A stretch of 64,000 bases of DNA from a virus. The position numbers were made by a program, and so were the translations under genes. The notes under the pieces were generated by a model. It worked only from the letters and a program-made list of their open reading frames with translations, did no database searches and had not been told where the DNA came from. The DNA lies in IMG/VR virus record IMGVR_UViG_3300009149_000016, positions 43,137-107,136 of that record. One strand, 5' to 3'. Positions 3,172 to 58,700 of this stretch are shown here, in pieces. Each line of letters begins with the position of its first letter. Positions within the stretch are counted from its first letter, which is position 1.

Positions 3172-4035
3172 TTACTGAGCTTGTAGTTTCGCTTGGAAGT
3201 ATTTCTTGAACAGCTTTGCTGTCGTCGAACCAATGGCTTTTCGAGCCTCCTTGCTATCGACGATCTCCCCTGCACCCTCGCGCAAGACATCCTCCGTCAT
3301 CGCTTGGATGACTTCTTTGGTCCGTTCCATCCCGATGTCGCCCTCGATCTTGTCCAGGACATGCTCAAGGCGAGTCGGAGTCACCCACTCATCGGCGATG
3401 GCTTGCGCTTCCTCCAACACCTTGAGCTTTTCCGGGTCGACTACCTGGCGAGGCGTATTGGTCTCCCGCTCCTCATCTCGCTTGTGCTTCGAAAGGACAC
3501 GCTCCCCCCGGTGGTCTCGGTATTCCGTCAACGGACGAAGCACGACACCTTCACGGGGTTGAGGTTCTTCAATCCCATTGCGAACCGCTTGAACACTCGG
3601 CGCATCCCGCTGCTTGTCGATCTCTTCCACGGTGGCCGCAATCCGCTCATAGTGGACGAATTCCAAGCTAAGTTTGGTCGCAACATTATGGGCGTTTTCG
3701 ACGGACAGCCACGTGTCATCGATCTTGACCTCAAAGGCAGCGAACTTCAGATCCTTGCCGTATCTCCAGGTCTGCTTTTGCTGACTCCCACCATACGCTT
3801 CGCCGTAGACAACCACGGTCGGATGACCCAGCGCCTCGAAGGCTTTCACAAGCGCAGCCTCATCGAACAGCGACCGAAAGCGTTCCGCCTTCGCGCCGCC
3901 CGACGAGAATTGCAACTTGCCATCCCGCCATTGGATGCTGGTTGACGTCCCATGGAGCTTTTCCAAGGCAAAGCATTCCTTGAAGGCTAGGATTCCCTGG
4001 TTCTTATAGAGGTTCTCGATGTGTCGGTAGCCCAT
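3172..4035 (-). CDS. RNA ligase, Rnl2 family
   Basis: Nucleotidyltransferase motifs I (EKLHGT), III (VYGE), IIIa (FAAFEV), IV (EGVVLRP) and V (KHK); C-terminal VTPTRLEHVLDKI resembles the Rnl2 C-domain. Confidence 0.85.
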   Translation of the reverse strand: MGYRHIENLYKNQGILAFKECFALEKLHGTSTSIQWRDGKLQFSSGGAKAERFRSLFDEAALVKAFEALGHPTVVVYGEAYGGSQQKQTWRYGKDLKFAAFEVKIDDTWLSVENAHNVATKLSLEFVHYERIAATVEEIDKQRDAPSVQAVRNGIEEPQPREGVVLRPLTEYRDHRGERVLSKHKRDEERETNTPRQVVDPEKLKVLEEAQAIADEWVTPTRLEHVLDKIEGDIGMERTKEVIQAMTEDVLREGAGEIVDSKEARKAIGSTTAKLFKKYFQAKLQAQ

Positions 4036-5486: not shown

Positions 5487-5522
5487 GCCTCAATCTACAC
5501 CGGCACGGAGCCGGGAGCGAGG

Positions 5523-6257: not shown

Positions 6258-7597
6258 GCGTCTACCACCAATTCCTCGAACAAAGCTGCTTGGGACGGGG
6301 GAAGCTCGCCCAAACAGTAAAAAGCGAACATTTCGGCAAAGTTCTCATCTGGGCTTGTCTTGGCGTACGGGGTGATGAACCCCTTGAAATCGTTCTTGAG
6401 CATCCTTGGGTCGATGCCCTTGAGTCTCAGGTACCCGAACAGGTTGATCTCCGCTGTATCAATAGAGAAGCTGCGGCGGGTGATGATGTCGATGAGCATC
6501 TTCTTTTCCCGCTCTTGCTCTGGCGTGAGAACCCCTTTGAACAGATCGGGAGCCTGCTTTTCCGCAGAACGAAGCACCTGAGCTTCAAGCTCTTTCTTGT
6601 CCTTGTCCGTCAGGACTTTCCGAAGATGAACCTTGTCTTTCTTCATGTACGTGACTTCGTACGTCTCGCCCTTATCCGTGATGGTGTCACCACGTTCGGG
6701 ACGATAACCAAGGAAGTCGCTCTGATACCCATCCTCGGCGGCATTGTAGAGGATCTTGGGCACACGCTTGTTTTTCAAGAACTTGTTTTCGTACCGATGA
6801 CCAAGCTCATGAATGATGGTGCGCACGGAGCTTCCCGCCGCAATTTTCTTGTCAGCACGAACGAAGAATTCATCCGACCCGTAAACGTAGAACGCAAGTA
6901 CGTTCCCTTTGTCGATCGACTGGCTGATATGAACCTCGCCGTAGCAGACCTTGCCAAGCCCAGCGGTTGTGATCTCCGATGCAGCCTCTTTGACTGCCTT
7001 AGCGCAGATGTCCATCACACCATCGGGGAAGCCACCCATGTTGATGAGGGTGAAGGGTCCGGCCTTGACCTTCACGGGGTCGTCGGCATCACCCACCGCA
7101 ATCTCACGACCCTTGCTCAGCGCTTCTTCCAGCGTACTGAAATGCGCCCGAAGGGTATCGAGGTACTTGAGATAGTACGTCAGGTAAGCATCGGTGCGCT
7201 CCAAGTCCTTCCTTGGGAGGCGGGGGCGGCGGTTGGTTTTCTTCGTCGCCCAAAACTTGACGAGCTTCTCGACCTTCTTACGCAGCGTTGCTGACAGGCT
7301 GTAGGTCTGGAGGATCGCCATCGAGATCCCCCACATCTGGTTGAACCGCTGATTGAAGCCGACCACCTCGGACATGATTGTGAACATGTCCCGACCGAAA
7401 TCGGGTTTTGCCACGTCCTTGCCACGAGCCAAGTCCTTTTTGTACTGCGAAAGGATGGCTTGGAACCGCTCGGCGTCCTTCTCAGCGTTGTCGTAAAGGT
7501 CGAACTTGCGCCGAAGCTCTTTGAGAAGTGCTTTCGGATCCTCGACGACCGCTGCCTCCAAGTACCGGGTGGCGACTCGCTCAGCATGAACGCTCAT
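6254..7597 (-). CDS. zincin-like metallopeptidase domain protein
   Basis: HELGH plus distal YAKTSPDENFAEMF third-ligand motif; start at 7597 overlaps the CCA-gene stop (ATGA). Confidence 0.75.
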   Translation of the reverse strand: MSVHAERVATRYLEAAVVEDPKALLKELRRKFDLYDNAEKDAERFQAILSQYKKDLARGKDVAKPDFGRDMFTIMSEVVGFNQRFNQMWGISMAILQTYSLSATLRKKVEKLVKFWATKKTNRRPRLPRKDLERTDAYLTYYLKYLDTLRAHFSTLEEALSKGREIAVGDADDPVKVKAGPFTLINMGGFPDGVMDICAKAVKEAASEITTAGLGKVCYGEVHISQSIDKGNVLAFYVYGSDEFFVRADKKIAAGSSVRTIIHELGHRYENKFLKNKRVPKILYNAAEDGYQSDFLGYRPERGDTITDKGETYEVTYMKKDKVHLRKVLTDKDKKELEAQVLRSAEKQAPDLFKGVLTPEQEREKKMLIDIITRRSFSIDTAEINLFGYLRLKGIDPRMLKNDFKGFITPYAKTSPDENFAEMFAFYCLGELPPSQAALFEELVVDA

Positions 7598-8802
7598 GCC
7601 AACCACCGGTTGGCAACTCGGAGGGCCACACGATCCGCCCCGGACTGAACGAGCCTCGTGAGCCGGTCTTGAAGCTCTCGTGGCTTGACGAAGGGGTCGT
7701 CCAGGATCAGATCCCGGGCCATGTCCACAGCTTTGCTAATGGCGGCTCCCTTGATGCCCGTATCCTGAATGAGCCGTCGGGTATCAATCGGCGGCTTCAA
7801 AAGCTTGTTGTAGACATCTTCCAAGTCGTCATAGCCGAGCTTGCTCTCAATCCGGCGAAGCATCCGGAGATGTTCAGGACGGAGCTTGTCCAACCCTACC
7901 GGAATCTCGAAACCGGCGAGCGTCAAAAGCAGATCGATGTTCTTGACTCGTTGTCCCACGGCTCGACGCAAACGGCTTGCCGGAAACATCGAAAGCACAG
8001 GATCGAGAAGTCCGAGCCCCTTCATGATGGTGAGCGCCTTTTTAGCGCCGGGCAGCTTCAGGATCTTGTCGAAGAAAAGCTCGTCGATCGCCTCGTACGA
8101 AACCCTTTTGATTTCCTTGGCTTTGCTCTTGATCGCCCGCCGAGTCGCCGGGTCCAATTCGAAACCGTATTTCACAGCAAAACGAATCGCCCGAAGCATC
8201 CGGGTCGGGTCGTCATCGAAGGTCTCGTTGGGGTCAAGAGGCGTCTTGACGATCTTGTCCTGCAAGTCCTTGAGCCCAAGCCCGGTCAAGTCGAGGATGG
8301 CTTTCTTGTCGGGACCTTGAGCCACATCGAGAAGCCGCCACACGAGCGCGTTGAACGTGAAGTCCCGGCGAAGCATGTCTTCGAGGATTGTTCCGGGCTC
8401 GACCTTCGAAGGCTTGTGACTCCCCTTTTCCTCTCCCTTGCCCTTTTCGTACTTCTCTTTGCGAGAAGTCACGATCTCGATCTTCTGTCCTTTGAGGTTG
8501 ACCCCGTCGAATTCAACGTCCACGGGGACAGGTCCAATGTGCACGACGCCGTATTGGTCGGCCTTGACGTTGGGTACCTGAAGGGCATCGGCAACCGCTT
8601 CGGCGAGCGTGACGGCATTCTTGCCGTTTTTCGGCTCGACCACCACGTCGACATCTTTGAAGTCGAACCCCAAAGCGAAGTCCCGGGGGGCCCCGCCCAC
8701 GATGTAACTGTGACTGGCCATACCAAGCCGTTTGGCGGTGGCTGACAGCAGTTTGACCAAGGCGTTGGCCTGTTGGGGGGTGGCGTCGGCAAGTCGGAAC
8801 AT
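7594..8802 (-). CDS. class II tRNA nucleotidyltransferase (CCA-adding / poly(A) polymerase family)
   Basis: YIVGGAPRD, DVDV, EDMLRRDFTFNAL and DDPTRMLRAIRF motifs; no HD domain evident. Confidence 0.92.
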   Translation of the reverse strand: MFRLADATPQQANALVKLLSATAKRLGMASHSYIVGGAPRDFALGFDFKDVDVVVEPKNGKNAVTLAEAVADALQVPNVKADQYGVVHIGPVPVDVEFDGVNLKGQKIEIVTSRKEKYEKGKGEEKGSHKPSKVEPGTILEDMLRRDFTFNALVWRLLDVAQGPDKKAILDLTGLGLKDLQDKIVKTPLDPNETFDDDPTRMLRAIRFAVKYGFELDPATRRAIKSKAKEIKRVSYEAIDELFFDKILKLPGAKKALTIMKGLGLLDPVLSMFPASRLRRAVGQRVKNIDLLLTLAGFEIPVGLDKLRPEHLRMLRRIESKLGYDDLEDVYNKLLKPPIDTRRLIQDTGIKGAAISKAVDMARDLILDDPFVKPRELQDRLTRLVQSGADRVALRVANRWLA

Positions 8803-8837: not shown

Positions 8838-8871
8838 TTGATCGTGAACAACCCTACACCTTAGAGGGTGC
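8838..8871 (+). promoter_or_regulatory. putative promoter TTGATC-N17-TTAGAG-GGTGC-ATG
   Basis: Same architecture and spacing as 27412-27445. Confidence 0.6.
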
Positions 8872-9189
8872 ATGAAGACTCTCGAAGCCCCCTCAGCCGT
8901 CACCGTCAACGCAGTCGCCCGCAAGTGGGCCAAGGCGCGTCCCGAGAGCGCTCAGCGCATCAAGCGGGCGGTCGCCCTGGTCGCCACCGTCGAGCGCACC
9001 GGCTCCCACACGTTCGCCGTCGAAGGCTCGGACGGTCGCAGCTACCAGGTGTGGGTCAACTGGCAGAAGCACACGAGCACATGCACATGCCCTGACTCGA
9101 TGGGTCGGGGAGCCAAGTGCAAGCACCGCTGGGCTGCGGCGCTCGTCATCGCCGGCCGGTCAACCGACCGCAAGGCTGCCCAAGCCTAG
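8872..9189 (+). CDS. SWIM zinc-finger protein
   Basis: VEGSDGRSYQV...CTCPD...CKH SWIM signature. Confidence 0.85.
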   Translation: MKTLEAPSAVTVNAVARKWAKARPESAQRIKRAVALVATVERTGSHTFAVEGSDGRSYQVWVNWQKHTSTCTCPDSMGRGAKCKHRWAAALVIAGRSTDRKAAQA

Positions 9190-9617
9190 ACGGTCGCTTG
9201 GGGTGCCTGGGACTTGCGCTTGAGGAACTGGCGCTCCCAATGCTTGCTCCGGGTTCCCAAGTACAGGACCCGGTCGTTCGGACACGGCGTGACGATCACG
9301 TTTGTCATCGGCACCCGCCCAACCTTTTTCCCACACTGAAGCTTGTAGCCGGTCCCATTGGTCCAAACGGCGCCCCGCCCGCTCGTGAGCAGTTCGCTCG
9401 CAAGGTCCATCGCGTGCGTCCGGTCAATCCGAAACCGAATGAACGTGAGAGCGCCGATGTTGAGCGGGCCGTTCGCTTCGAGGAAATCAAACTTGATCTG
9501 GGCTTTCGCTGCGGTTCGCAAGACTGCTTCTGCGACGTCTTGGACCGATTCGAGGGATTGTTGTTCGACAGCGAAGTACGTCGCCGGGGTGTTCGAAGGA
9601 AAGAAGTGGTGCATCAT
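9186..9617 (-). CDS. hypothetical protein
   Basis: ATGA overlap with the DHFR stop. Confidence 0.6.
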   Translation of the reverse strand: MMHHFFPSNTPATYFAVEQQSLESVQDVAEAVLRTAAKAQIKFDFLEANGPLNIGALTFIRFRIDRTHAMDLASELLTSGRGAVWTNGTGYKLQCGKKVGRVPMTNVIVTPCPNDRVLYLGTRSKHWERQFLKRKSQAPQATV

Positions 9618-10402
9618 GTTCGTACGTAGTAGCGGTGGAGAAGGTCAGGGTCGTCGGGGTTGTGGCTCTCGGATTCGAGAGTGAATGCTTCCATGGGCAG
9701 GCGAGGCATCGGGGTGATGTCACCCATTGAGAGAACCACAAGATCTGGCACGATTGTCAGATCCAATGCGTCGACGAATGGCAGCGCCGCCTCATAGACC
9801 ATCGCACCACCCGCTACCCACCTTGGTCGTCCAGCAAAGTACATTCTCGAAAGTTCGAACGCAAGCTCGATTTCGTTGACTGCCCGCACGCCCGTGTCTT
9901 GAAACGGACCTGGGTTGCTCGTGAGCACGATGATCTCACGCCCCTTGAGCTTTTTCCGTCCAAGCGACTCGTAGGTCTTGCGCCCCATGATGAGCACACC
10001 GCCCATCGTCCGCTGTTTGAATCGGCGCATGTCGGCCTTACGATGCCACGGGATGCCTCCGTCGGCTCCGATGACACCTTGGGGGTTGATGGCGGCGATA
10101 AGCGTCGTCTTGACCTGTTTCTCTTCCACTATGCGCTCCCAGATGGTTGGGCGACCGGCGAGGGGCCCCCAAATCTCCAAAGCTTCCTCTTGGGTGGCCT
10201 CTCGCTCTGGGATCTTGTCCAAATCCATGATCTGCTCAGGCTTGTAGACATGCCCCCGGTCGACGAAGTAGCTCTTGTGGTCGGAAGGCATCTCTCCGGG
10301 CTTGAGGAAACGCCCCATGTTGAGCACGAGAAGCAGAAATCCATCCGTCGTTCGATGCCATTTGACGATCTGCTTCGTTGCCAGGATGTAGGTGCGGCCC
10401 AT
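9614..10402 (-). CDS. folA: dihydrofolate reductase with ~90-aa N-terminal extension
   Basis: LIAA...VIG...IPW...DMRRFKQRT...IMGRKTYESL...VAGGAMVY DHFR motifs in the C-terminal ~170 aa. Confidence 0.88.
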   Translation of the reverse strand: MGRTYILATKQIVKWHRTTDGFLLLVLNMGRFLKPGEMPSDHKSYFVDRGHVYKPEQIMDLDKIPEREATQEEALEIWGPLAGRPTIWERIVEEKQVKTTLIAAINPQGVIGADGGIPWHRKADMRRFKQRTMGGVLIMGRKTYESLGRKKLKGREIIVLTSNPGPFQDTGVRAVNEIELAFELSRMYFAGRPRWVAGGAMVYEAALPFVDALDLTIVPDLVVLSMGDITPMPRLPMEAFTLESESHNPDDPDLLHRYYVRT

Positions 10403-10659
10403 CAAAACACTCCAAGGTGAACACAGGGGGTCTCATTGACCGGAGAAGTCCACCCCAAGATCAGACATAGAGGACAAGGGATGTGCTCAAACTCGATACC
10501 ATGCACCTTTTCCACCCGCAAGATCGCCTGAAGGTACCTCTTGGACATCGGAAAGTGATGCCTTCGAAGATACCTCCAGCCTGTCACGTACCACAGGATA
10601 CAGCACGGGTGGATATCCGAGCGCAGCCCGTTGACCATGTGCTCAAAGGTGTCACTCAC
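10402..10659 (-). CDS. hypothetical Cys/His protein
   Basis: Overlaps both neighbours (GTGA, TGATG); IHPCC and IPCPLC. Confidence 0.6.
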   Translation of the reverse strand: MSDTFEHMVNGLRSDIHPCCILWYVTGWRYLRRHHFPMSKRYLQAILRVEKVHGIEFEHIPCPLCLILGWTSPVNETPCVHLGVF

Positions 10660-11771
10660 ACGGCGACCTTGAACTTGATGTTTTCCCGGGGCATGTAGTT
10701 CTCGATCCGGAACAGCTTCATGATCTGCTCCGTCGTCACCGAAGGATCCAAAAGGGCCTCAACGTCTTCGAGCGTCCGAATGGAATCGTCAATGAAAAGA
10801 TTGGGGGGCGAGTCAATGTCCCGCTCAAGCTGTTCTTCGAGCCCGGGTACGTGGTCGTACTCGGCTTGGGTACCGTCGGCTTTCTTCGTGTAGATGTGGG
10901 TATCCACGAGCGTGTGGCCGAAGATCCCAGCTTCCATGTCGGCAAACCGAGCCATGAGCGAACACAGAAGGGCGTAGCTTGCGAGGTTGTACGGCACCCC
11001 CAACGCCACATCGCATGAGCGCTGGGTCAAGTGCAGGCAAAGCCGTCGGGGGTCGTCATAGGCCGGACCATCCTTGAAAGGTTCACTCTTGTGAATCTTG
11101 TTCAAGATTTGTTTGCACTTGGGACACCAAGCTTGCCCCCGATCAAGCACAGCAATTCCGGTTCGGGTTTGCGAACCACGAGGTGCGCCGCAGACAGGAT
11201 CAAATCCGTCGTTGTGCCCATAGTGGAACACCTTGTCCACGCCCTGGTTCTGGACGTTGAAGATGAACATGCAGTGGCAGGGGGCCCAATAGGTCTTGAG
11301 GGTCGGGGGCGTTTGCACGATGTGAGGCTGCCAGGCGCTTACCACGAGATCCCGCCGCATCGGGTTGGTCTGAAGCTGCCCCATCACCCACTTGATTTGG
11401 TCGTTCCATTCGGTGACCGGCCCATCGTAGCCGAGCCCCGTCTCATCCATACGGTAGCCGGGGGTCTCGAACCGGCGCCAGGCGGGCCCATAGGCGGCGT
11501 TGACCTTCCCGTCGTCCCGGTACCAGGGTCGCCAGAACTTGATCCCATGCCGCTCAAGGAAGTCTTGCCCGTTGGTACCCGACAGGAACCACAGAAGCTC
11601 GATCACAATGTTCTTCCACTGGATTTCCTTCGTGGTCAGAAGCGGGAAGCCATCCCTCAGATCGTGCTCGTAGTAGTACCCAAACGTTGACAAGGTGTCT
11701 ACGCCAGTTCGGTTTTCCTTGCGAACGCCGTGCTTGAGCACATGGCGCACGAGATCATGATATTGTCTCAT
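10656..11771 (-). CDS. thyA: thymidylate synthase with internal insertion
   Basis: NRTG, FPLLTTK, ELLWFL, PCH catalytic Cys, QRSCD...VPYN (dUMP-specifying Asn), DTHIY, C-terminal KVAV. Confidence 0.95.
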   Translation of the reverse strand: MRQYHDLVRHVLKHGVRKENRTGVDTLSTFGYYYEHDLRDGFPLLTTKEIQWKNIVIELLWFLSGTNGQDFLERHGIKFWRPWYRDDGKVNAAYGPAWRRFETPGYRMDETGLGYDGPVTEWNDQIKWVMGQLQTNPMRRDLVVSAWQPHIVQTPPTLKTYWAPCHCMFIFNVQNQGVDKVFHYGHNDGFDPVCGAPRGSQTRTGIAVLDRGQAWCPKCKQILNKIHKSEPFKDGPAYDDPRRLCLHLTQRSCDVALGVPYNLASYALLCSLMARFADMEAGIFGHTLVDTHIYTKKADGTQAEYDHVPGLEEQLERDIDSPPNLFIDDSIRTLEDVEALLDPSVTTEQIMKLFRIENYMPRENIKFKVAV

Positions 11772-11997: not shown

Positions 11998-12272
11998 AGC
12001 CTCTCCCAGATGGTTGGGCGCTTCTGGTCCCACCCCAGTTCGGCCTCACGCACCCTGGAAGCGTGCACGAAGGCTTCCAGGGCGTCGTAGAAGTCCGTCG
12101 TGTGCAAGGTTATGCGCTCGTTGGAGCACAAGAGTCCATCCTTGACTCGCAGGGTGACCACCGGAACCTTTTCCCTCCGGTCGATCTTGAGATAAACCAC
12201 ATCACCTACGGCAAAAACGGTGACGTCATCCTCATCGGAGTTGGCTTCCGGGCCGATAACAACGGTCCTCAT
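11994..12272 (-). CDS. hypothetical protein ending in RPTIWERL
   Basis: ATGA-coupled on both sides. Confidence 0.65.
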   Translation of the reverse strand: MRTVVIGPEANSDEDDVTVFAVGDVVYLKIDRREKVPVVTLRVKDGLLCSNERITLHTTDFYDALEAFVHASRVREAELGWDQKRPTIWERL

Positions 12273-12838
12273 TGGTACCTTCGTCCGGTCCAGGCGGCGA
12301 CGTGGTTGTAGACGTCACCCCAGTTGTACGCCCGGGTCAAATGCTCGTCCTCTTGGTTGTATGTCGTGTCCCAGAGGATTCCCTCACCGTTCGGGTGCGC
12401 TGCGAGCCACTTCTGAACGTTTTCCGGCTTGTCATCGATCAGGATGTCGCCGTCGACGACTTCCTTATAGCCCGTCTGGACGATCTTCCTCGGGTCGAAG
12501 CCGAACTTGCCAGCGAGCCAGAAGCTTCGCTCATAGGCCCACGTAGGGCTCGTGTGGAACGGTGTGGTGACCGGAACCACCTCCCCGAACGTCTGAAGCC
12601 GCTTGACGGCTTCGGGAGCCTCTGGGAAGGGCTCGATCCCCGCACAGAACCCTGGCTGGTTCATGGCGAACCGCAAGTGCTCGTGGTGCTCAGATGGGAT
12701 GAGCTTCTGGATGTCCCAATCGACAACCTGCTCCGGGCGCAAGGTGATGCCCATGTGCTGCTTGATCAGCTTGAGAACGGCTCCCGTGAAGTCCCCGACG
12801 ACTCCATCAACGTCCAGCAAGATTCGTGGCTTTGGCAT
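12269..12838 (-). CDS. 5'(3')-deoxyribonucleotidase, HAD family (NT5C-like)
   Basis: LLDVDGVVGDF motif I; K...GDILIDDKPEN motif IV. Confidence 0.9.
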   Translation of the reverse strand: MPKPRILLDVDGVVGDFTGAVLKLIKQHMGITLRPEQVVDWDIQKLIPSEHHEHLRFAMNQPGFCAGIEPFPEAPEAVKRLQTFGEVVPVTTPFHTSPTWAYERSFWLAGKFGFDPRKIVQTGYKEVVDGDILIDDKPENVQKWLAAHPNGEGILWDTTYNQEDEHLTRAYNWGDVYNHVAAWTGRRYQ

Positions 12839-16999: not shown

Positions 17000-17041
17000 G
17001 TTGTCCTCTACACCGAGTGTTCCGACCCCTGAAATGCGACA

Positions 17042-17068
17042 GCCCGTCACCAGTTGAGGGTGACGGGC
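17042..17068 (-). other. 10-bp stem-loop with loop CUCAACU
   Basis: GCCCGTCACC/GGTGACGGGC perfect inverted repeat in the intergenic gap; no strong U-tract. Confidence 0.7.
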
Positions 17069-17108
17069 CGCAGACGGCGCACGTGTGACGTGTTCAGCCG
17101 GTGTTGTG

Positions 17109-24757: not shown

Positions 24758-25497
24758 TAAATGTTCCCAAGTCCTGTTGGGCCCGAACCCTGGCTCTCTT
24801 TTCGAGCCTTGTCCTGTTTCCACTTCGGCTCACTGCTCACATCGTCGACCCCATGAATCGGTTCGCTGGTGCACGAGGACATATGCTGGATTGCCGTCGC
24901 ATGCTTTTCAGTCCTGCGTTGGGCCTTAGGAGCCATGTTGAGCCTTTTGAACCGCCGACGGATGTAGTTTTCCGTTTCCTGGCTCCATGAAAGGTGGCCC
25001 GCCTGAAAGAAATTTTCCGGCTCATTGATGATCCACGTTGGGGCTCCCGCCATCTCCCGCATCACGAGCGTCTCATGCAAAACGCCGGGGGCCGCAATGT
25101 TCTTGTACTTCAGACCGCCGAGCCGGATGATCAAAAGCTTGATATCCTCAGGGCCAACCAGGTCTCGGAGGGAGAAGTTGTCCTCCTCCCCGACGTACAC
25201 CCGAACGAGCCGTTGGTCCGTGACGAGCCGATACTGAAAGGTTGGGCCCTTGCACCCAAGCGCCCACTTCAGGTGCCCACGGGCAGTCTCCCACGAGACT
25301 TCAATCATCAAGTTCTTATCCGTCAGGTCGCGAGTCTCACTCCACAAGGGGCTTCTCGATGGAAGCTTGGCGTCGGCCAGTGAACCCAGGTAGGTCTTGA
25401 GCAGTTTGCGGTAGCGGCAGACGCACTGCGTCACCGTGTCGTCGGTCGTGAAGATGACCCCGGCACCTTTGCAGATGGTGCAAACGTCATCCTCCAT
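24757..25497 (-). CDS. DnaC/IstB-like helicase-loader homolog, ATPase motifs degenerate
   Basis: N-terminal CxxCxG...CxC; LLIIRLG in place of Walker B; adjacent to dnaB. Confidence 0.55.
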   Translation of the reverse strand: MEDDVCTICKGAGVIFTTDDTVTQCVCRYRKLLKTYLGSLADAKLPSRSPLWSETRDLTDKNLMIEVSWETARGHLKWALGCKGPTFQYRLVTDQRLVRVYVGEEDNFSLRDLVGPEDIKLLIIRLGGLKYKNIAAPGVLHETLVMREMAGAPTWIINEPENFFQAGHLSWSQETENYIRRRFKRLNMAPKAQRRTEKHATAIQHMSSCTSEPIHGVDDVSSEPKWKQDKARKESQGSGPTGLGNI

Positions 25498-25651
25498 TTT
25501 GCCGCTCTTGCTGTCGGAGTTGCTCATCTAGCTTTTTCCTCCGTCGTTCGTCCTGCCACGCTCGAAGTCGATCCATGAAGGTCGATCGGTACTGGCGAAC
25601 GTCCTTGTCGGGTACCTTGTGAGGGTCCCAACCCCCGTACTTTGTTGTCAT
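25487..25651 (-). CDS. small hypothetical protein (54 aa, not in ORF track)
   Basis: MTTKYGGWDPHKVPDKDVRQYRSTFMDRLRAWQDERRRKKLDEQLRQQERQNGG*; ATGA overlap with the SNF2 stop; GGAGG upstream. Confidence 0.55.
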   Translation of the reverse strand: MTTKYGGWDPHKVPDKDVRQYRSTFMDRLRAWQDERRRKKLDEQLRQQERQNGG

Positions 25652-27393
25652 TTATCCCTCCCTTGCAGCATCCCAACGAGATCCCGGATGCTGTTGCGCC
25701 CCTTCTCGAATTCCAAAGCGCCCACAGCCGCCTCACCAAGCACCTTGTTGATGACGTTGCGCTTCTTTCGTAGGAGAGTCAGGACGTAGTGGTCGATGGT
25801 GTGGACCCCCTCTTCTGGCTTGCCGTGCCGCTCGGCGATGAGGTGGTAGCACAGGACGTTCGGATGGGGGCTACCGATCCGGATGGGACGGCCCAAGATC
25901 TGGACGTAATTGCCGTAGCTCCACGGAGCATCGTAGAACACGATGGCTGCCGCCGCCTGCAAGTTGATCGATTCTGAACCGGCATCCGTAATGAAGATTA
26001 CATGGATATCGCTTTTCATATCCGTGAAGACTTTCTTGGCCTCTTCACGTTTGGCGTCATTCTCTTTGCCGGTGATCCGGACGGACTTGATACCGACCTG
26101 GTCGAGAAGTCCCCGGAGCCGAGCGACGACCGATTCGAACCGGGTGTAGACGATGACCTTCTCACCGTCCAACTCCTCTGCCATGAGCGCTTGGAGCATC
26201 TGTTCCTTCGAACCGAGCTTGCCCACCTCCAAGTCTTCGTCGAAGTCGATGATGAAATCTCCTTCCCGGTACTTGAGCAAGTCCAGGGAGTTGACCACCT
26301 TTTGGCACATCATCAAACTCGTCAGGGCTTTGCTGTCCTCATAATCAAGGACTTCGCCGGACCCAAGCTCCAAAACTCCGCTGAGCGCCTCGCAATACTT
26401 GGCGTCCTCGACCTTGCTCATCGGGAAGCGAACCTCACGGGTCGTGAGTGTCGGAAGCTCGGCCGATACCTCGTGCTTCTGGCGCCCCAAGAAAAACGTG
26501 TCGATTCGGTCCCGGAACCGGTCCAGGTTCTTGAACCCGAGCACGATCGGGATCTTGCGACGACCCACCGGCTGCATCTTCACGAAACAGAAGTCGTCCA
26601 TGAACTTCGTCTTCGTGGTGAACACCCCCGGCATGATAACGCCGTAGATGCTGAAGCCTTCCATCAAGTGGTTCTTCAGAAGGGTTGCGGTCAGGCCGTA
26701 GACCCGGTGGGAGCGGCTCGCCACCTGGGCGCATACGTCCCAGGTCTGGGTTCGGCTGTTTTTGAAGGCACTCGCTTCGTCGAAGATCATGACCAAGCTC
26801 TCGACCGAGTCGGTGATCCTGTCGAGAAGGCCAGGCACGACGGACGCGCCTTTCTTGAGGGCTTTCTTCTCTGGGATGAATCGGCCCTGTTTCCAATCCC
26901 GCACGAGGATGTGGTAGTTCATGATGAGAACTACCTTCTCGGCATCGGGGCCCGTGGGGGCCTCCTGCCACGCCTTGTATGCCGCCTCACGCTTGGCGAG
27001 GGTGCCGGATGCGATGACGGTCCGGACCCCCTTGGCAAAGCGCTGGATCTCCCCAGCCCACTGCCGAAGGGCGCTCTTTGGGGCGACCACGATCACCTTG
27101 TTGTTGTGCTCGATGCTCCACAGGTAGCACAGGGCGGCAATCGTCTCGATCGTCTTGCCTAGCCCGCACGCGTCCCCAAGGACCATGCGTTTGAGCTTGA
27201 GCATGTGGAAGGTGCCTTGGACCTGGTAGTACCGGAGCCGGAAGGGCTCTCGACCCCCGTCAAAGCTGGAGATTTCCTCCCGAAGCATTGGGCACGGTTT
27301 GAGTGAAACCGTCTTGGAAGCCCGGACCTTCTGGAGTTGCTCGTAGATGGGTCGATGGGTCTCGACCGGATCAGCAATCGGCTTGGCTGGCAT
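25648..27393 (-). CDS. SNF2-family SF2 helicase/translocase
   Basis: GDACGLGKT, DEAS, LTAT, ESINLQ, QILGRPIRIG. Confidence 0.92.
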   Translation of the reverse strand: MPAKPIADPVETHRPIYEQLQKVRASKTVSLKPCPMLREEISSFDGGREPFRLRYYQVQGTFHMLKLKRMVLGDACGLGKTIETIAALCYLWSIEHNNKVIVVAPKSALRQWAGEIQRFAKGVRTVIASGTLAKREAAYKAWQEAPTGPDAEKVVLIMNYHILVRDWKQGRFIPEKKALKKGASVVPGLLDRITDSVESLVMIFDEASAFKNSRTQTWDVCAQVASRSHRVYGLTATLLKNHLMEGFSIYGVIMPGVFTTKTKFMDDFCFVKMQPVGRRKIPIVLGFKNLDRFRDRIDTFFLGRQKHEVSAELPTLTTREVRFPMSKVEDAKYCEALSGVLELGSGEVLDYEDSKALTSLMMCQKVVNSLDLLKYREGDFIIDFDEDLEVGKLGSKEQMLQALMAEELDGEKVIVYTRFESVVARLRGLLDQVGIKSVRITGKENDAKREEAKKVFTDMKSDIHVIFITDAGSESINLQAAAAIVFYDAPWSYGNYVQILGRPIRIGSPHPNVLCYHLIAERHGKPEEGVHTIDHYVLTLLRKKRNVINKVLGEAAVGALEFEKGRNSIRDLVGMLQGRDK

Positions 27394-27411
27394 CCTTCTT
27401 ACCTACACTGG

Positions 27412-27445
27412 TTGATTGGCTTGGGCACCATGTCTTATGGGGTGC
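27412..27445 (+). promoter_or_regulatory. putative promoter TTGATT-N17-TTATGG-GGTGC-ATG
   Basis: Same architecture as 8838-8871. Confidence 0.6.
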
Positions 27446-27700
27446 ATGGAGCCTTTCAACGTTACGACCGAGACCACCCACCACCGACTAACTGCCGTGG
27501 TCATCCGTGAGGAGAACAGCGGACGTCGTTGGCGAAGCAACCGTGCGTTTGGCTCGGAGATGAGCGCCACCCGTTTCGCTATCGAACAGGTGGTTCCGGC
27601 GCTTCAAAAAGGTGCTCACCCGGGCACATCCACCAAGTGGACGGAGATCGAGCCGGTTCACCAGAGCCCGGCCTGGTACCTGCAACAGCGGGCAGGCTAA
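27446..27700 (+). CDS. hypothetical protein (84 aa)
   Basis: Fills the gap between SNF2 and MazG genes; shares the upstream motif of the SWIM gene. Confidence 0.6.
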   Translation: MEPFNVTTETTHHRLTAVVIREENSGRRWRSNRAFGSEMSATRFAIEQVVPALQKGAHPGTSTKWTEIEPVHQSPAWYLQQRAG

Positions 27701-28098
27701 GCCTGCTTGCCTCCGTGGCGAAAGGATCGCGTCTGATTGTACGCATCCTTGACCGCCACCGCCTTGCCGATGTCCACCCCGTAGAAGCCCGCCATATCGA
27801 GCGCTCGGATGATCACGTCGGCAAGCTCTTCCTCGAAATACGTGAGCGGCTCTAGCCCCAGCGCTTTCATCTCTTCAGCCTTGTCGCAGGGCTCGTTGAG
27901 GAGACCCTTTCGATAGGCGGTCCAGATCTCAGCCACCTCTTCGTGAAGGTTGGACGTGTAACGACCGACCCCCTGGGCTTCCAACTCTGGGTCGTGGAAG
28001 CCTTTTGCGGTGTGGATCTTGAGGATGTGGTCGCCGAGCGTGTTGAGGATGACCAAATCGAGCGGCTGGTACTGCTTGTATGGAGTCTGGTCAGACAT
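27697..28098 (-). CDS. MazG-like all-alpha NTP pyrophosphohydrolase
   Basis: HEEVAE...EEELADVIIRALD...K.AYN..R...HGGK. Confidence 0.85.
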   Translation of the reverse strand: MSDQTPYKQYQPLDLVILNTLGDHILKIHTAKGFHDPELEAQGVGRYTSNLHEEVAEIWTAYRKGLLNEPCDKAEEMKALGLEPLTYFEEELADVIIRALDMAGFYGVDIGKAVAVKDAYNQTRSFRHGGKQA

Positions 28099-28324
28099 GC
28101 CCGGATCTTACACCCTTGAAGGGTATGAATCGAGCAAGACGACGGCCTTCAGGCCAATCGACGATCTCATTCCACATCTCAAGCGGACGGATCCACGTGC
28201 CCTCTTGGTCCATGTTGACGTAGACCACCATCTTGGACTGGTCCTCCGAGTGTTTCCCCACCGCAATGACCTGGTACAGACCGCCCTTGAAGTGTCGGTA
28301 GAGTTTGCCAACTTTCGGTTGCAT
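28091..28324 (-). CDS. DUF1653 family protein
   Basis: YRHFKGGLYQV...HSE...VVY...WIRPLEMW...RF; start at 28324 (alternative 28330). Confidence 0.85.
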   Translation of the reverse strand: MQPKVGKLYRHFKGGLYQVIAVGKHSEDQSKMVVYVNMDQEGTWIRPLEMWNEIVDWPEGRRLARFIPFKGVRSGHV

Positions 28325-28353
28325 GCTCATACCCTACACCCCTTAAATTAGTT

Positions 28354-28444
28354 GGGCCCTGGTTGAGTTGTCAGGGCCCGAATATAGGCACAGTTGAGTT
28401 GTCGCGCCTACTAGAGCGGCCATAGTTGAGTTGTCATGCCCGCT
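28354..28444 (-). repeat. three tandem stem-loops with identical ACAACUCAAC loop (candidate structured RNA or iteron array)
   Basis: GTTGAGTTGTC at 28362, 28393 and 28425, each flanked by a different inverted repeat. Confidence 0.85.
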
Positions 28445-28478
28445 ACAAGAATCAAAGTATCGTTCGGGGAGCGAATTG

Positions 28479-29771
28479 TCAAGTGGGTTCCAAGCAGATC
28501 GTGACATTCGCATGGCGGCGAGACACGTTGAACTTGCGCTGGAAGGGCTCGGATCGAACGCCTGTGGACGAATCGAGCGCGTACATCTGCACCCTGCTTG
28601 CAATCTCAGAGGAATCCAGGTTGAGTCCAGCCCCCTTGGTGACTTCCAGAGATACGTGAATGTTGTGCGGACCGTCCACGTTATCCCAAGCATCCCAGCC
28701 CACAGAGGAGATCGACTTGCGCCGGGAAGGAATTCCCCGTGTGCCGACGTACTCCCCGATCACCCGAATCGAACCGCCTTGGTCAACACCGATCCCGAAG
28801 TGGTCGATCCCGTAGGGCTTCAGGTAGAATGCGTAGAAGGTGTCGGGGCCAGCAACGCGTGTGAGGGGGTAAACAACCAGTCCCTCACGGTGCTGGTTGA
28901 AGTATCGACCGCCTCGAAGGTCTGCCATGGTTTCGAGAGTCCTGACGGTCGGAGACGGTAGTCCTTGAAGCCCGAAGAACCGAGGCGTTCCGACTTGGAA
29001 GGTATCGCCGACGCCCGTTGCGGCGTAGTTGGCGGTTCCTGTGTTGTACGCCTGGCGTTGAGTCGAACCCGAGATCACGTAGGACCCCACCTTGGGTTGA
29101 TGGTAGAGGTTCTTTTTGGTGTGAGACCAGATAAGGCATGAACTGTTCAAGGGGGCCACAGGTGTGACGATTGAGTGAAATGCGTTCATGAAGTCACGAC
29201 CGGGCTCCGTGAAGGCATCGGTCCAATGACCGCCACCGCCTTCAAACGCAGTATCGATTCCACACGTTGGCGGAAGCCCACTACGATAACGCCGGTTGTA
29301 GGAGCCGCCCCCTCGCATGCTGCTGTACATCCGGTTGTGGCAAGAGACCCGAACTTGGTTCATGTCGGGGTCGAACACCTCGAAGACCCGAACCACAGCT
29401 TGGTCATCGAAAAAACCGCCGCTCGACGCCGTGTTGGCCCAAACATAGGAGATCACCTCAGCAATCGTGCCTTGTGCTTGATAGTGTTTCGTCCCGGTGC
29501 CGCCTGGAAAGTCGATCTCGAAGAACGCACCTTGCAAAGTGTCGTCCCACTGCTGTGCCGTGTGGCCCGGGGTGACTGCATTTGCGCTCACGGTGATTGG
29601 ACGCGTTCGCAAGTAAAACGTGATTTGGTCCGTCTGCCGCAAGTACCAGCGAGGACGACGGGTCCATGTCTGAGTCACGTTGTCCCACTGCCAAATCGTG
29701 CGCTCAGCGTCGACGTAAACTTGACGGGGCGATGTCGGGATTGGCTTTGTGACGGTGTTCCACTCAAACAT
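28479..29771 (-). CDS. hypothetical protein, probably virion-associated
   Basis: Beta-rich 430-aa ORF at the end of the late block; AGGA RBS. Confidence 0.65.
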   Translation of the reverse strand: MFEWNTVTKPIPTSPRQVYVDAERTIWQWDNVTQTWTRRPRWYLRQTDQITFYLRTRPITVSANAVTPGHTAQQWDDTLQGAFFEIDFPGGTGTKHYQAQGTIAEVISYVWANTASSGGFFDDQAVVRVFEVFDPDMNQVRVSCHNRMYSSMRGGGSYNRRYRSGLPPTCGIDTAFEGGGGHWTDAFTEPGRDFMNAFHSIVTPVAPLNSSCLIWSHTKKNLYHQPKVGSYVISGSTQRQAYNTGTANYAATGVGDTFQVGTPRFFGLQGLPSPTVRTLETMADLRGGRYFNQHREGLVVYPLTRVAGPDTFYAFYLKPYGIDHFGIGVDQGGSIRVIGEYVGTRGIPSRRKSISSVGWDAWDNVDGPHNIHVSLEVTKGAGLNLDSSEIASRVQMYALDSSTGVRSEPFQRKFNVSRRHANVTICLEPT

Positions 29772-31541: not shown

Positions 31542-31735
31542 TTTCTTTCCTGAACGGGGATTGCCCCCGCTTCCCAAGCCGCCAGCTTCTGAAGTTGCTT
31601 CATGATGACCTTGGCTTGAAGCTGGTCCATGATCGGGTTGGCGAGCATCGCCTTGAGGTGGGTCCGGCGCGTAGCAGCGGCTTCGCGCCGCTGCTGTGGG
31701 CTCAGATCCAAGTAGGACATGTGCTTGACGCTCAT
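31538..31735 (-). CDS. hypothetical protein (65 aa)
   Basis: AGGAG RBS. Confidence 0.6.
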   Translation of the reverse strand: MSVKHMSYLDLSPQQRREAAATRRTHLKAMLANPIMDQLQAKVIMKQLQKLAAWEAGAIPVQERK

Positions 31736-55743: not shown

Positions 55744-58700
55744 TTACCTTCGACCCTGAGGATTGGTTGCTTCCAATGATGCAACCTTTGCCTTCAGGGA
55801 GTCAACCTGTAGGCTCAATTCCTGAACAGCTTTGATGAGCGGCGAGATGAATTCTTCATATCGGATCGACTTCATGGCGTCTTGGTCGCCCTTGTCGTGC
55901 CCGAGATCCACGTAACCACCGAAATCAAGATCTCGCTTGTCCAGGACGTCCTTCACCTCTTGGGCGATGAGACCGTAATGCTCCCGCACGTGCTTGCGAC
56001 TTTGTTTCCGGCCCTCGTTCTCACGATCCTTGAACTTGTACTGAACGGGCCGAAGCTCGTTGATGAATGAAAGCCCCTGTTTCAGATCCTGGATGTCTCG
56101 CTTCAACCGGCGATCGGAAGACCCTTGGATGACGCTCCAACAGTACACGTTGTCGCCCGTGTAGTCACCGAGTTGAATGTCGCCGGTCGTCAGGGCTGCT
56201 TGTGCCGTGAAGTTGTAACCGATGGCCGTCATGCCTGTGCCGCCTGAGTCGGCGCTGTTCAGGTTGACGTTGTAACCCAAGATGTTGTTGTAGCTGCCCG
56301 TCGTCGGGTACAAGTTGCCAGAACCAGCGCCCAGAATCGTATTGTTTGAGCCGGACGTGACTCCCGCTCCCGCAGAGGCCCCAAGAAATACGTTGGAATC
56401 TCCCGACGAAACGGTGCCACCGGCACTATTTCCGACCGCCGTGTTGGAATCTGCTGTACAAACGTCCAGGGCGAGATAGCCGACCGCTACGTTCTGACTG
56501 ACCGCCACGTTGGTCCCGAGCGTTCCTGAACCGATGGCAACGTTGCGGCGAGATCCGGCGCCGGGGGTCTGGTACATGGCGTTGTAGCCGACCGCCACGT
56601 TGTCATCATTTTCCTGATCGGTTGCCGTGGCAACCACAGCCGCCATGGCCTGGTAGCCGATGGCAACGTTCTCCCGGCAGTGACCATTGACGCCGAAACC
56701 ATTGCCAACAGCGAGAGCGTTGTAACCAATGGCGACTGAGCCGTCCCCAATATTGGTTATCGCCGCCGCCATAGCCCCCACACCGATGGCGATGTGCCCG
56801 TTCTCGGTGTCGAGATCGTTGAGAGCATTGCGACCGATGGCGATGTTATTCGATCCTGTCGTCAAAGCGCTCAAACTGGCCGAAGAAATGGCTACGTTGT
56901 CGGAACCGGTCGTGCATGCGTCCAGGGTCGCGTCTCCCAATGAGACGTTTCGACTTCCGGACGAAACGAGATATAGGGCCCGGTATCCGAGCGCAATGTT
57001 GTACGAAGCTGACAGGTAGGTACTGGCTCCGTAGTGGGCCTGGTAGCCCATGGCGACGTTGTAATCGCCTCCGGAGTCGGACCGGTAGCCCGTTTGATAG
57101 CCGATGTACGCACTTCCGGTGCCGATGCCTTGGTAACCAGCGCTGCGACCAACAAAAGTGCACTGAATGGTGCTGGCAGTAGTCTGATACCCTGAATCGG
57201 CTCCGATGCAGACGGTCTCGTTCCCGGTGATCGTTCCGGCCCTGAATCCTACGTACGTGCACTGAGTTCCGTCTGAGTTCGTTCCCGCCTGGCTGCCGAG
57301 CACGGTCGACTCGGTGCCCATCTTCAGATATCCGGCGTTGTACCCCAGCGCAACAGCGTTCACCGCAGCACCAAGGCCGTTGCCCGCTTGATACCCAATG
57401 CCGATGCAAGCAACCCCGGTGGAACCCTGCATAGCGCTGGTGCCAATGGCTACCGTGTATTGCCAGGGACTACCGTTCGCATTGCACGCGTTGTCCCCGA
57501 TGATCACGCAGTTGTTGATCCCAGTCGTCTGACTGGTATGCGCCAGTGCCGTGTACCCGATGATGATGTTGCTCGCCGACGTCGTCAAATACCTTCCGAC
57601 ATAGGTCCCCATCACACAGTTGAACCCGCCCGTCGTGACCGCAGAGATAGCCCCGAACCCGAGGGCCACGTTCCATGAAGCGCTGGACCCTGCCACATTA
57701 CCTTTGCCAGCCTGATAGCCGACGTACACGTTGTTGTCGCCGGTCGCGTAACGTCCGGTCTCATAGCCAAGGCAAGCATGGTTGTCGCTTGTGTTGCCAT
57801 CGGCCATGGAGAACATTCCGACGGCGGTGTTGTACTGTCCCTGCGTCTTTTGGTAAGCAACCTGGGTTCCGACGTACGTGTTGAAGCTGTACGTCGAACC
57901 CAAGTCCCTGGCTGCCAGTTGGCCGATAGCAACCGTGCTACCACCGCCCGTACTATTGGAAAATGCACCTGATCCAACGATCGTGTTGTTCGCACCAGCG
58001 GAAGTTAGAGACGCGCCCGTGTTGTAGCCAATGTAGGTCGAGCCCGTGCAGTACCACTTGTCAGTGAGGTTCCAACCCATCGCTCCATAACCAAGACGAG
58101 TGTTCGTTGTGGAGCCAGAAAAGGTCGTCACGCCTCGATACGTCAGTGCGTGTGCATGCTGCCCAGCGGTCGCAACCCACCTCTGGTTTCCCGCCCCAGA
58201 CGTATCGATGGTCGTCTGATTGTCATTCCCGGAAAGCGCGAGCGGGACCGCCTGATACATGGTCATGGTCGACTGAACCCAACAGATGTCACCATCTGTT
58301 GGCACCGCCGCTGCCGCTGCCGTGTAATCGGCATAGATCGTCACCCCACCACCACCACCCGAATTCAGATCGTAGAGAGTGGTCCCGTCGTCCGTGGCAC
58401 GCCACTTCTCAAGCGTGTCGTCATACAGAAGGTAGGGCTTGTTGGCGAAGTCATTGTACGCGACGATGTGGAAGTCTTCAGCGATCCCGGTGCCGAAGTA
58501 GACGTTCGCGCTCTTGATCGAGGTTGTGTTCGTACCTTGACCGGTGAGCCCCTGCCCAATGACGATCTCGTCCGACACCCCAACGGCAGACGGCGTGATG
58601 CTCGCCCCTAGATAGACGTTGTTTGAGCCGGTCGTTAATGTCGGCGCTGCCCAGTGGCCTGCGAACAAATTCGATCCGCCAGTAGTCACACCCTTACCAG

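Follow-up and report, generated by a model that had tools for sequence, protein, structure and literature searches.

Three hairpins with different stems and one identical 10-nt loop stand in tandem in a stretch of phage DNA of 64,000 nt (the window), at the border of a block of replication and nucleotide-metabolism genes, and this element is real, well formed and uncatalogued. We read it as a cis-acting structured RNA of the sense strand, the three identical loops of which would dock one loop-specific factor, and we give this reading a probability of about 40%. To our knowledge, next to nothing is known of how huge uncultured phages regulate their genes. The array combines strong internal covariation with a position at the border of a replication block, and offers a synthesizable handle of ~100 nt with which a regulator might be fished out; if a binder exists, the two would make up a new RNA-protein recognition pair. 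The same contig uses at least one non-standard pre-start signal (GGTGTAG) and carries an RNA-repair toolkit.

Structure and selection of the triple hairpin array

The window comprises bases 43137-107136 of an IMG/VR virus record of 107,136 bases with a CheckV completeness of 23%; the source sample of this contig is a subsurface metagenome. Positions are those of the window, and the array and the elements that adjoin it are as follows.

28479-29771, minus strand: gene for a 430-aa orphan protein, upstream of the array
28454-28482, minus strand: TTGACA-N17-TACTTT, a candidate sigma-70-like promoter that overlaps the upstream stop codon, with its predicted start at the foot of hairpin 1
28415-28444, minus strand: hairpin 1, AGCGGGCAUG[ACAACUCAAC]UAUGGCCGCU, with the 5' arm at 28444-28435, the loop at 28434-28425 and the 3' arm at 28424-28415
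28384-28411, minus strand: hairpin 2, (G)UAGGCGCG[ACAACUCAAC]UGUGCCUA(U), with the loop at 28402-28393
28354-28379, minus strand: hairpin 3, GGGCCCUG[ACAACUCAAC]CAGGGCCC, with the loop at 28371-28362 and 8 perfect Watson-Crick pairs
28341-28353, minus strand: spacer of 13 nt, AACUAAUUUAAGG, from the array to GGTGTAG
28334-28340, minus strand: GGTGTAG motif, 3 nt and 9 nt ahead of ATG 28330 and ATG 28324, respectively, of the DUF1653 gene
28091-28330, minus strand: gene for a DUF1653 protein of 77-79 aa (PF07866, E 8e-20), the first downstream gene

All three copies of the loop sequence ACAACTCAAC (minus strand, 28425-28434, 28393-28402 and 28362-28371) fall within 73 nt, and the scan of the whole 107,136-base contig that the sequence-only reading had proposed found these three and no others. 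That reading had described three hairpins with unlike stems and an identical 10-nt loop, with the loops 31 and 32 nt apart and 13 nt from the end of the array to GGTGTAG (28340-28334). The hairpins are borne out both by the sequence and by RNAfold, which recovered all three in the MFE and in the centroid structure, and the distances are as described (32 and 31 nt between loop starts, in the order of hairpins 1 to 3). A further claim, that all stems pair, holds for 27 of the 30 stem positions but not throughout, the AGCGGG hairpin (hairpin 1) having a single internal G-G mismatch and thus 9/10 pairs, with a closing G-U; hairpin 2 has 8-9 pairs, 2-3 of them G-U. A G precedes every loop and closes it as G-U, G-U or G-C, giving an invariant unit of GACAACUCAAC-Y, and the loop itself is G-free, C/A-rich and 10 nt long with a YUNR-type CUCA turn. 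By inspection, the 3' flanks contained no pseudoknot partner for the loop.

Pairing was analysed in an alignment of three 34-nt units anchored on the loop, and covariation was therefore judged among three internal paralogous copies in one genome, on which it rests because no homologous array was found. Stem cells were paired in 27/30 cases (90%), compared with 30-57% in a control in which the 3' partner was slid by 1-3 columns; both sides had changed in six of the ten pairs of the three-unit alignment, and none of 500 shuffles matched the observed pairing or covariation score. The loop was identical at 30/30 positions, whereas outside the G and the 10-mer the units were only 33-54% identical, which shows the loop to be constrained far more tightly than the stems. 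Identical loops on stems that are paired yet diverging point to selection both on the loop sequence and on pairing itself. A covariance model built on the array gave 46.1 bits for hairpin 1, 29.6 for hairpin 2 and 46.8 for hairpin 3, and found these three copies only. An alternative raised from the sequence alone, that the repeats are simple double-stranded iterons, is rejected because it leaves these paired flanks and their compensatory changes (90% versus 30-57% when slid) unexplained.

The hairpins also differ between strands. As RNA, hairpins 1, 2 and 3 have energies of -11.7, -11.3 and -17.3 kcal/mol on the minus strand and of -8.8, -5.8 and -19.9 kcal/mol on the plus strand; hairpins 1 and 2 are clearly better folded on the minus strand because of their G-U pairs. 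The earlier remark that G-U pairs favour this strand was thus correct, and it is for these two hairpins that the energies show it. Region z-scores were -2.56 (minus) and -0.45 (plus) with RNA parameters and -4.9 (minus) and -2.8 (plus) with DNA parameters, and this asymmetry under both sets of parameters indicates that the minus strand is the selected one. Such selection fits a sense transcript, or a minus strand exposed as single-stranded DNA (ssDNA); a cruciform or a plain double-stranded site is at odds with the preference. Taken as a whole, the pattern requires selection for hairpins on the sense strand, for an exact single-stranded sequence of 10-11 nt on each of them and for three regularly spaced copies.

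The array begins 34 nt past the upstream stop codon and fills the 148-nt gap that separates the end of the 430-aa gene from the start codon of the next gene. A single homologue of the 430-aa protein (P0002, 33% identical and encoded on a 214-kb contig) was found among 5.8 billion clusters; the C-terminus of the 430-aa protein aligns with it to the last residue, P0002 continuing for 4 residues, and this supports the stop codon at 28479 and hence a non-coding array. On the downstream side the DUF1653 Pfam match starts at residue 10 of the protein, and the spacing of 31 and 32 nt places the three repeats in different reading frames. On these grounds the array is ruled out as coding and lies outside coding sequence. 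Two open reading frames were considered and rejected: a 116-aa ORF (28343-28693), which runs out of frame across the 3' end of the 430-aa gene, and an 8-codon mini-ORF that starts in hairpin 1 and has no counterpart in the other two units.

Gene neighbourhood, associated signals and relatives

Nearly all genes in the window are on the minus strand, as is every neighbour of the array. The DUF1653 gene opens a block encoding a MazG-like pyrophosphatase, an SNF2 helicase, a DnaB-like helicase, a CHC2 primase zinc-finger protein and a 1340-aa PolA, in agreement with the earlier placement of the array beside replication genes. Beyond PolA, on the same downstream side, are genes for thymidylate synthase, DHFR, NT5C, a CCA-adding/poly(A) polymerase family enzyme and an Rnl2-type RNA ligase. 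With DnaB, primase, PolA and nucleotide genes all downstream, the array stands at the head of a replication and nucleotide-metabolism block. Upstream in the direction of transcription come very large ORFs, then several small orphan genes and then the 430-aa orphan, which could be assigned to no Pfam or PHROG family and gave no usable Atlas match. One of the very large ORFs carries a recognisable domain.

55744-60111, minus strand: gene for a 1455-aa protein with a C-terminal Peptidase_S74 intramolecular chaperone domain

This chaperone domain is typical of tail fibres and tailspikes. A 1444-aa upstream ORF has a weak tail-fibre match, and the ORFs of 1251-2279 aa beside the 1455-aa gene gave no Pfam family, the 2279-aa ORF having been checked against PHROGs only. 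For the gene directly upstream of the array, the 430-aa orphan, the earlier label of 'late block' is tentative.

Several other features of the window were recorded. The Rnl2-type RNA ligase, the CCA-adding/poly(A) polymerase family enzyme, thymidylate synthase, DHFR (with an N-terminal extension) and the NT5C nucleotidase are encoded at 3172-4035, 7594-8802, 9614-11771 and 12269-12838 (minus strand); together these enzymes make up a toolkit for RNA repair and nucleotide metabolism. A 54-aa ORF without family assignment that comes next to the SNF2 helicase gene, on its downstream side (25487-25651, minus strand), has an Arg/Lys-rich helix (RAWQDERRRKKLDEQLRQQERQ) that, from its composition, appears to resemble arginine-rich RNA-binding peptides. 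Two isolated plus-strand starts (27412-27448 and 8838-8874, plus strand) have in common GTTGAT, ~18 nt and TTAnnGGGTGC-ATG, an arrangement that looks sigma-70-like at both and would yield leaderless mRNAs.

The GGTGTAG motif next to the array recurs in the window, with 12 exact copies against 3.4 expected. In the form GGTGTAR it is found 8-9 nt ahead of the start codon in ~25 genes on both strands of the whole contig (for example, on the minus strand, at 28334-28340, 17008-17014, 5495-5501 and 2733-2739), and AGG or GGC often stands directly before the ATG. GGTGTAR is too distant from the start and too conserved for an ordinary Shine-Dalgarno sequence, and may be a phage-specific promoter or initiation signal; enrichment of GGTGTAG was absent in the two nearest relatives (G001 and LR745208.1). 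Given that ~20 other GGTGTAG copies have no upstream hairpin, the array is not part of this signal. The sigma-70-like candidate at 28454-28482 is no more than a lead: it is one of 22 equal-scoring sites in the contig and not above background, and a stricter scan returned none. An intrinsic terminator has a GC-rich stem with a U tract directly after it; no terminator-like site was found in 27500-29500, and the tail of hairpin 3 is AACUAAUUU, with no U tract.

A second strong hairpin, proposed earlier as a fourth member of the set, lies elsewhere in the window.

17039-17071, minus strand: 13-bp hairpin with a 7-nt loop, CUCAACU (-25.4 kcal/mol), in the sense-strand gap between the DUF1257 and Ycf46-like AAA genes

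A stop codon lies 37 nt ahead of it, and 24 nt (17038-17015) separate it from a GGTGTAG. The hairpin is indeed very stable and its intergenic position is comparable, but its link to the array is weak because its score against the array covariance model is at noise level (9.2 bits, E about 6) and because CTCAAC, the 6-mer common to its loop and the array, is frequent, with 68 copies on the minus strand.

Searches with the exact two-loop pattern returned 63 matches in viral contigs, all of them coding-type tandem repeats without stems; at least 120 in metagenome contigs, with no hairpin array among the matches listed; and 26 in genome contigs, all tandem repeats save one, in a Gemmataceae MAG (L219:80-195, DATNCY010000245.1). 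This locus has two CGGG[ACAACTCAAC]CCCG mini-hairpins with the same 10-nt loop, set in a stretch where the 5' arm of a perfect 23-bp hairpin is partly duplicated. It was rejected as a relative of the array; the motif is not enriched in the Gemmataceae genome and the match is probably coincidence. In the literature, ACAACTCAAC was encountered in primers and siRNAs only.

Protein-guided searches with the 430-aa protein, P0002, their alignment, DUF1653, SNF2 and PolA found no syntenic locus, and the contig of P0002 was absent from the collections that were scanned. The nearest records were G001 (89 kb), with an SNF2 domain 60% identical, and LR745208.1 (485 kb), an uncultured 'huge phage' record that is the closest database relative by DNA polymerase (PolA 32% identical); neither contained the loop motif or, in a de novo scan, a same-loop hairpin array. 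An independent marine-sediment run (2022) yielded a phage ~97-99% identical, at low depth, with contigs that span the whole array, and this was compared over positions 26500-29507. Both listed differences near the array are in the 13-nt spacer (28349 and 28350); one more, unlocated difference is in a 175-nt piece that holds hairpins 1 and 2 and the 5' tip of the hairpin 3 loop, and the flanking coding pieces diverge by 1-4%. This relative appears compatible with conservation of the array but too similar to prove it, and the array seems so far to be confined to one phage lineage.

A proposed docking RNA and alternative explanations

Conserved loops on free stems in a multi-hairpin arrangement are the usual design of protein-docking RNAs, as in CsrB/RsmZ, ANTAR targets, boxB and the T4 gp43 operator. 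A protein-binding RNA is ranked first because the array matches this design and because no complementary RNA was found in the contig. In the mechanism that we propose, the array would be carried on a minus-strand transcript, at the junction of a tail-fibre-rich block and the replication and nucleotide-metabolism block, and its three stem-loops, 31-32 nt apart, would each present the same loop on a G-Y closing pair. The loops would serve as three equivalent docking sites for one trans-acting factor specific for the loop sequence, most likely an oligomeric RNA-binding protein of phage or host origin. Occupancy of these sites would then set the fate of the transcript, through translation of DUF1653 and the replication genes, through read-through as opposed to termination, or through transcript stability. 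Transcription of the array, binding of the factor and a regulatory outcome are what we infer from its form and position.

The dependence of hairpins 1 and 2 on sense-strand G-U pairs argues against a cruciform or double-stranded site. It counts against a docking RNA that no canonical RNA-binding domain was recognised among ~35 scanned neighbouring proteins, that no homologous array was found, and that the array, unlike classic translational operators, does not overlap the downstream start region. Autoregulation by DUF1653 is not supported, the DUF1653 genes in seven other phage records being tightly packed against the upstream gene or without a structured leader. A wider role is put forward tentatively, and we hold it to be doubtful in its full extent: the array may be one half of an as yet undescribed phage riboregulatory pair, either as a trivalent platform that recruits or titrates a dedicated loop-reading protein or as a decoy for a host single-strand-specific RNA nuclease or small RNA, and would in this way govern when a huge phage switches between replication and the expression of virion genes.

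The array could instead be a passive boundary, with hairpins that terminate or insulate transcription, shield the 3' end of the upstream mRNA or offer processing sites to an endonuclease, and with a new transcript arising from GGTGTAG in a PeSL-like manner; we consider this unlikely. The location of the array shortly after the upstream stop codon (34 nt) and before a recurrent pre-start motif (13 nt) is in keeping with such a function, as is the similar placement of the strong hairpin at 17039-17071 (37 and 24 nt respectively), and PeSL stem-loops are known to terminate transcription at module borders (PMC2839356). However, the stems are without a U tract and the number of terminator-like sites is zero; termination or protection needs no invariant 10-nt loop, three weak hairpins would make an odd terminator, and ~20 other genes preceded by GGTGTAG have no such hairpin. 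Stems of 8-10 bp are, moreover, too short for RNase III, which counts against processing.

There is a slim chance that the array is an RNA-RNA element, with loops that act as kissing or seed sites for a GU-rich GUUGAGUUGU-like RNA, in which case the array would either titrate a host small RNA, as a sponge or decoy, or be the target of a phage RNA encoded elsewhere in the genome. The loops are unstructured and G-free and contain YUNR (CUCA), a motif typical of fast-pairing antisense loops, and three identical copies would suit titration. No complement of the 11-mer (<=2 mismatches) occurs at a meaningful position in 107 kb, however, although the contig is only 23% complete (CheckV) and a partner could thus be elsewhere in the genome; nor is there a terminator to bound a discrete small RNA.

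Also improbable are hairpins that function in replication as ssDNA, forming an origin, primosome-loading or nicking site extruded on the minus strand as in rolling-circle or geminivirus origins. The array adjoins the DnaB, primase, PolA and SNF2 genes, the spacing of its hairpins is close to three helical turns, and the minus strand folds well under DNA parameters too (z -4.9, versus -2.8 for the plus strand), but several of the pairs would be G-T wobbles, a weak form of pairing in DNA. Cumulative GC skew in the contig reaches its minimum only 3.1 kb away, at 31589; this was rejected as a clean origin signal, as the skew turns where replication genes give way to giant structural genes and reverses again at ~55 kb. 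Of the features of HUH/Rep origins the invariant loop is present, but the scanned neighbours, which are part of a contig that is itself about a quarter of the genome per CheckV, showed no recognisable HUH/Rep domain or initiator gene, and the phage, a large one with double-stranded DNA, encodes a DnaB and a PolA of its own.

A double-stranded DNA signal, in which a transcription factor or sigma appropriator would recognise the 11-mers as phased iterons, operators or -35-like boxes and the flanking dyads would be secondary, is very improbable: the three 11-mers do recur as direct repeats every 31-32 bp, xTGACA runs across the stem-loop border (ATGACA, GCGACA and CTGACA at the closing G and loop) and a perfect TTGACA lies 46 nt upstream, but the 27/30 paired flank cells with compensatory changes and the strand-specific wobbles go unexplained, no -10 element is found at a constant distance from the three boxes, so the -35-in-loop reading fails, and the sigma-70-like match is at background level.

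Comparison with known RNA elements

The impression gained from the sequence alone that the array belongs to no recognised family was upheld by Rfam, where the only match to the array was Flavi_TBFV_SL6, at 17.8 bits against a cut-off of 38.3 (E 0.26), and no family reached its gathering score anywhere in the 64-kb window. ARAGORN found no tRNA or tmRNA genes in the window. Two further classes of element have a different architecture. RNase III sites of the T7 type have about two helical turns of duplex and are usually two-tiered; the stems of the array are 8-10 bp long and 3-5 nt apart, with no enclosing long helix in the centroid fold. ToxI-like repeats of type III antitoxins are near-identical, ~36 nt long and in tandem, and are followed by a terminator and the gene for a ~170-aa endoRNase toxin; the units of the array are 33-54% identical outside the loop, and the downstream gene encodes a 79-aa DUF1653 protein.

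PeSL stem-loops of T4-type phages terminate transcription, sit at module borders and are ~100-bp conserved cassettes that recur dozens of times and keep the same GGGG...CCCC stem (PMC2839356). The array is likewise made up of intergenic stem-loops just upstream of a recurrent start-linked or promoter-like signal at a module border, but it is unique, its loop is conserved while its stems vary, and most GGTGTAG sites (~20 others) are without a hairpin. An invariant loop on variable stems is also the format of rolling-circle, geminivirus and nanovirus origins and of N4 virion-RNAP promoters, in which it is read in ssDNA. The array differs in being a tandem triple and not a single hairpin; N4 promoters have 3-nt loops and form on the template strand, whereas the hairpins of the array are better on the non-template (sense) strand.

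The nut sites of lambdoid phages (lambda and P22, with N-bound boxB) resemble the docking RNA proposed here in having a hairpin in an early leader with a loop that is read by a phage protein. The closing G and first four loop bases of the array give GACAA, the P22 boxB pentaloop; hairpin 3, GCCCUG...AGGGC, resembles the lambda boxB stem; and CGCUCU at 28418-28413 is boxA-like, with 4/6 of its bases paired within hairpin 1, where nut sites have a single-stranded boxA (CGCUCUUA-like) 5' of boxB and an N-type arginine-rich protein. These resemblances are short and could be due to chance. The loops of the array are 10 nt in every fold, as opposed to a GNRA-like pentaloop on a stem of ~5 bp in boxB, and there are three tandem copies in place of one boxB; no N-like gene was identified, and the Arg/Lys-rich ORF of 54 aa at 25487-25651 has no family assignment.

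The gp43 operator of T4 and RB69, like similar hairpin operators of replication genes, is a stem-loop with a specific C/A-rich loop of 8-10 nt upstream of phage replication genes; its loop in T4, AAUAACUC, may be set beside ACAACUCAAC of the array. The array differs in that it stops 13 nt before the pre-start motif without overlap of the ribosome-binding region, is present in three copies and precedes DUF1653 and not the polymerase gene. CsrB, RsmY, RsmZ and the ANTAR targets share with it the principle of unrelated stems that offer one conserved loop motif to a multimeric protein. The loop ACAACUCAAC has no G, however, and hence no GGA as in the Csr/Rsm RNAs; ANTAR targets have two A1/G4 hexaloops and competition with a terminator, in contrast to three 10-nt loops and no terminator; and, unlike both groups, the array shows no discrete small-RNA boundaries and has no Rfam match. 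The array matches no catalogued RNA family and is a familiar design in a new form.
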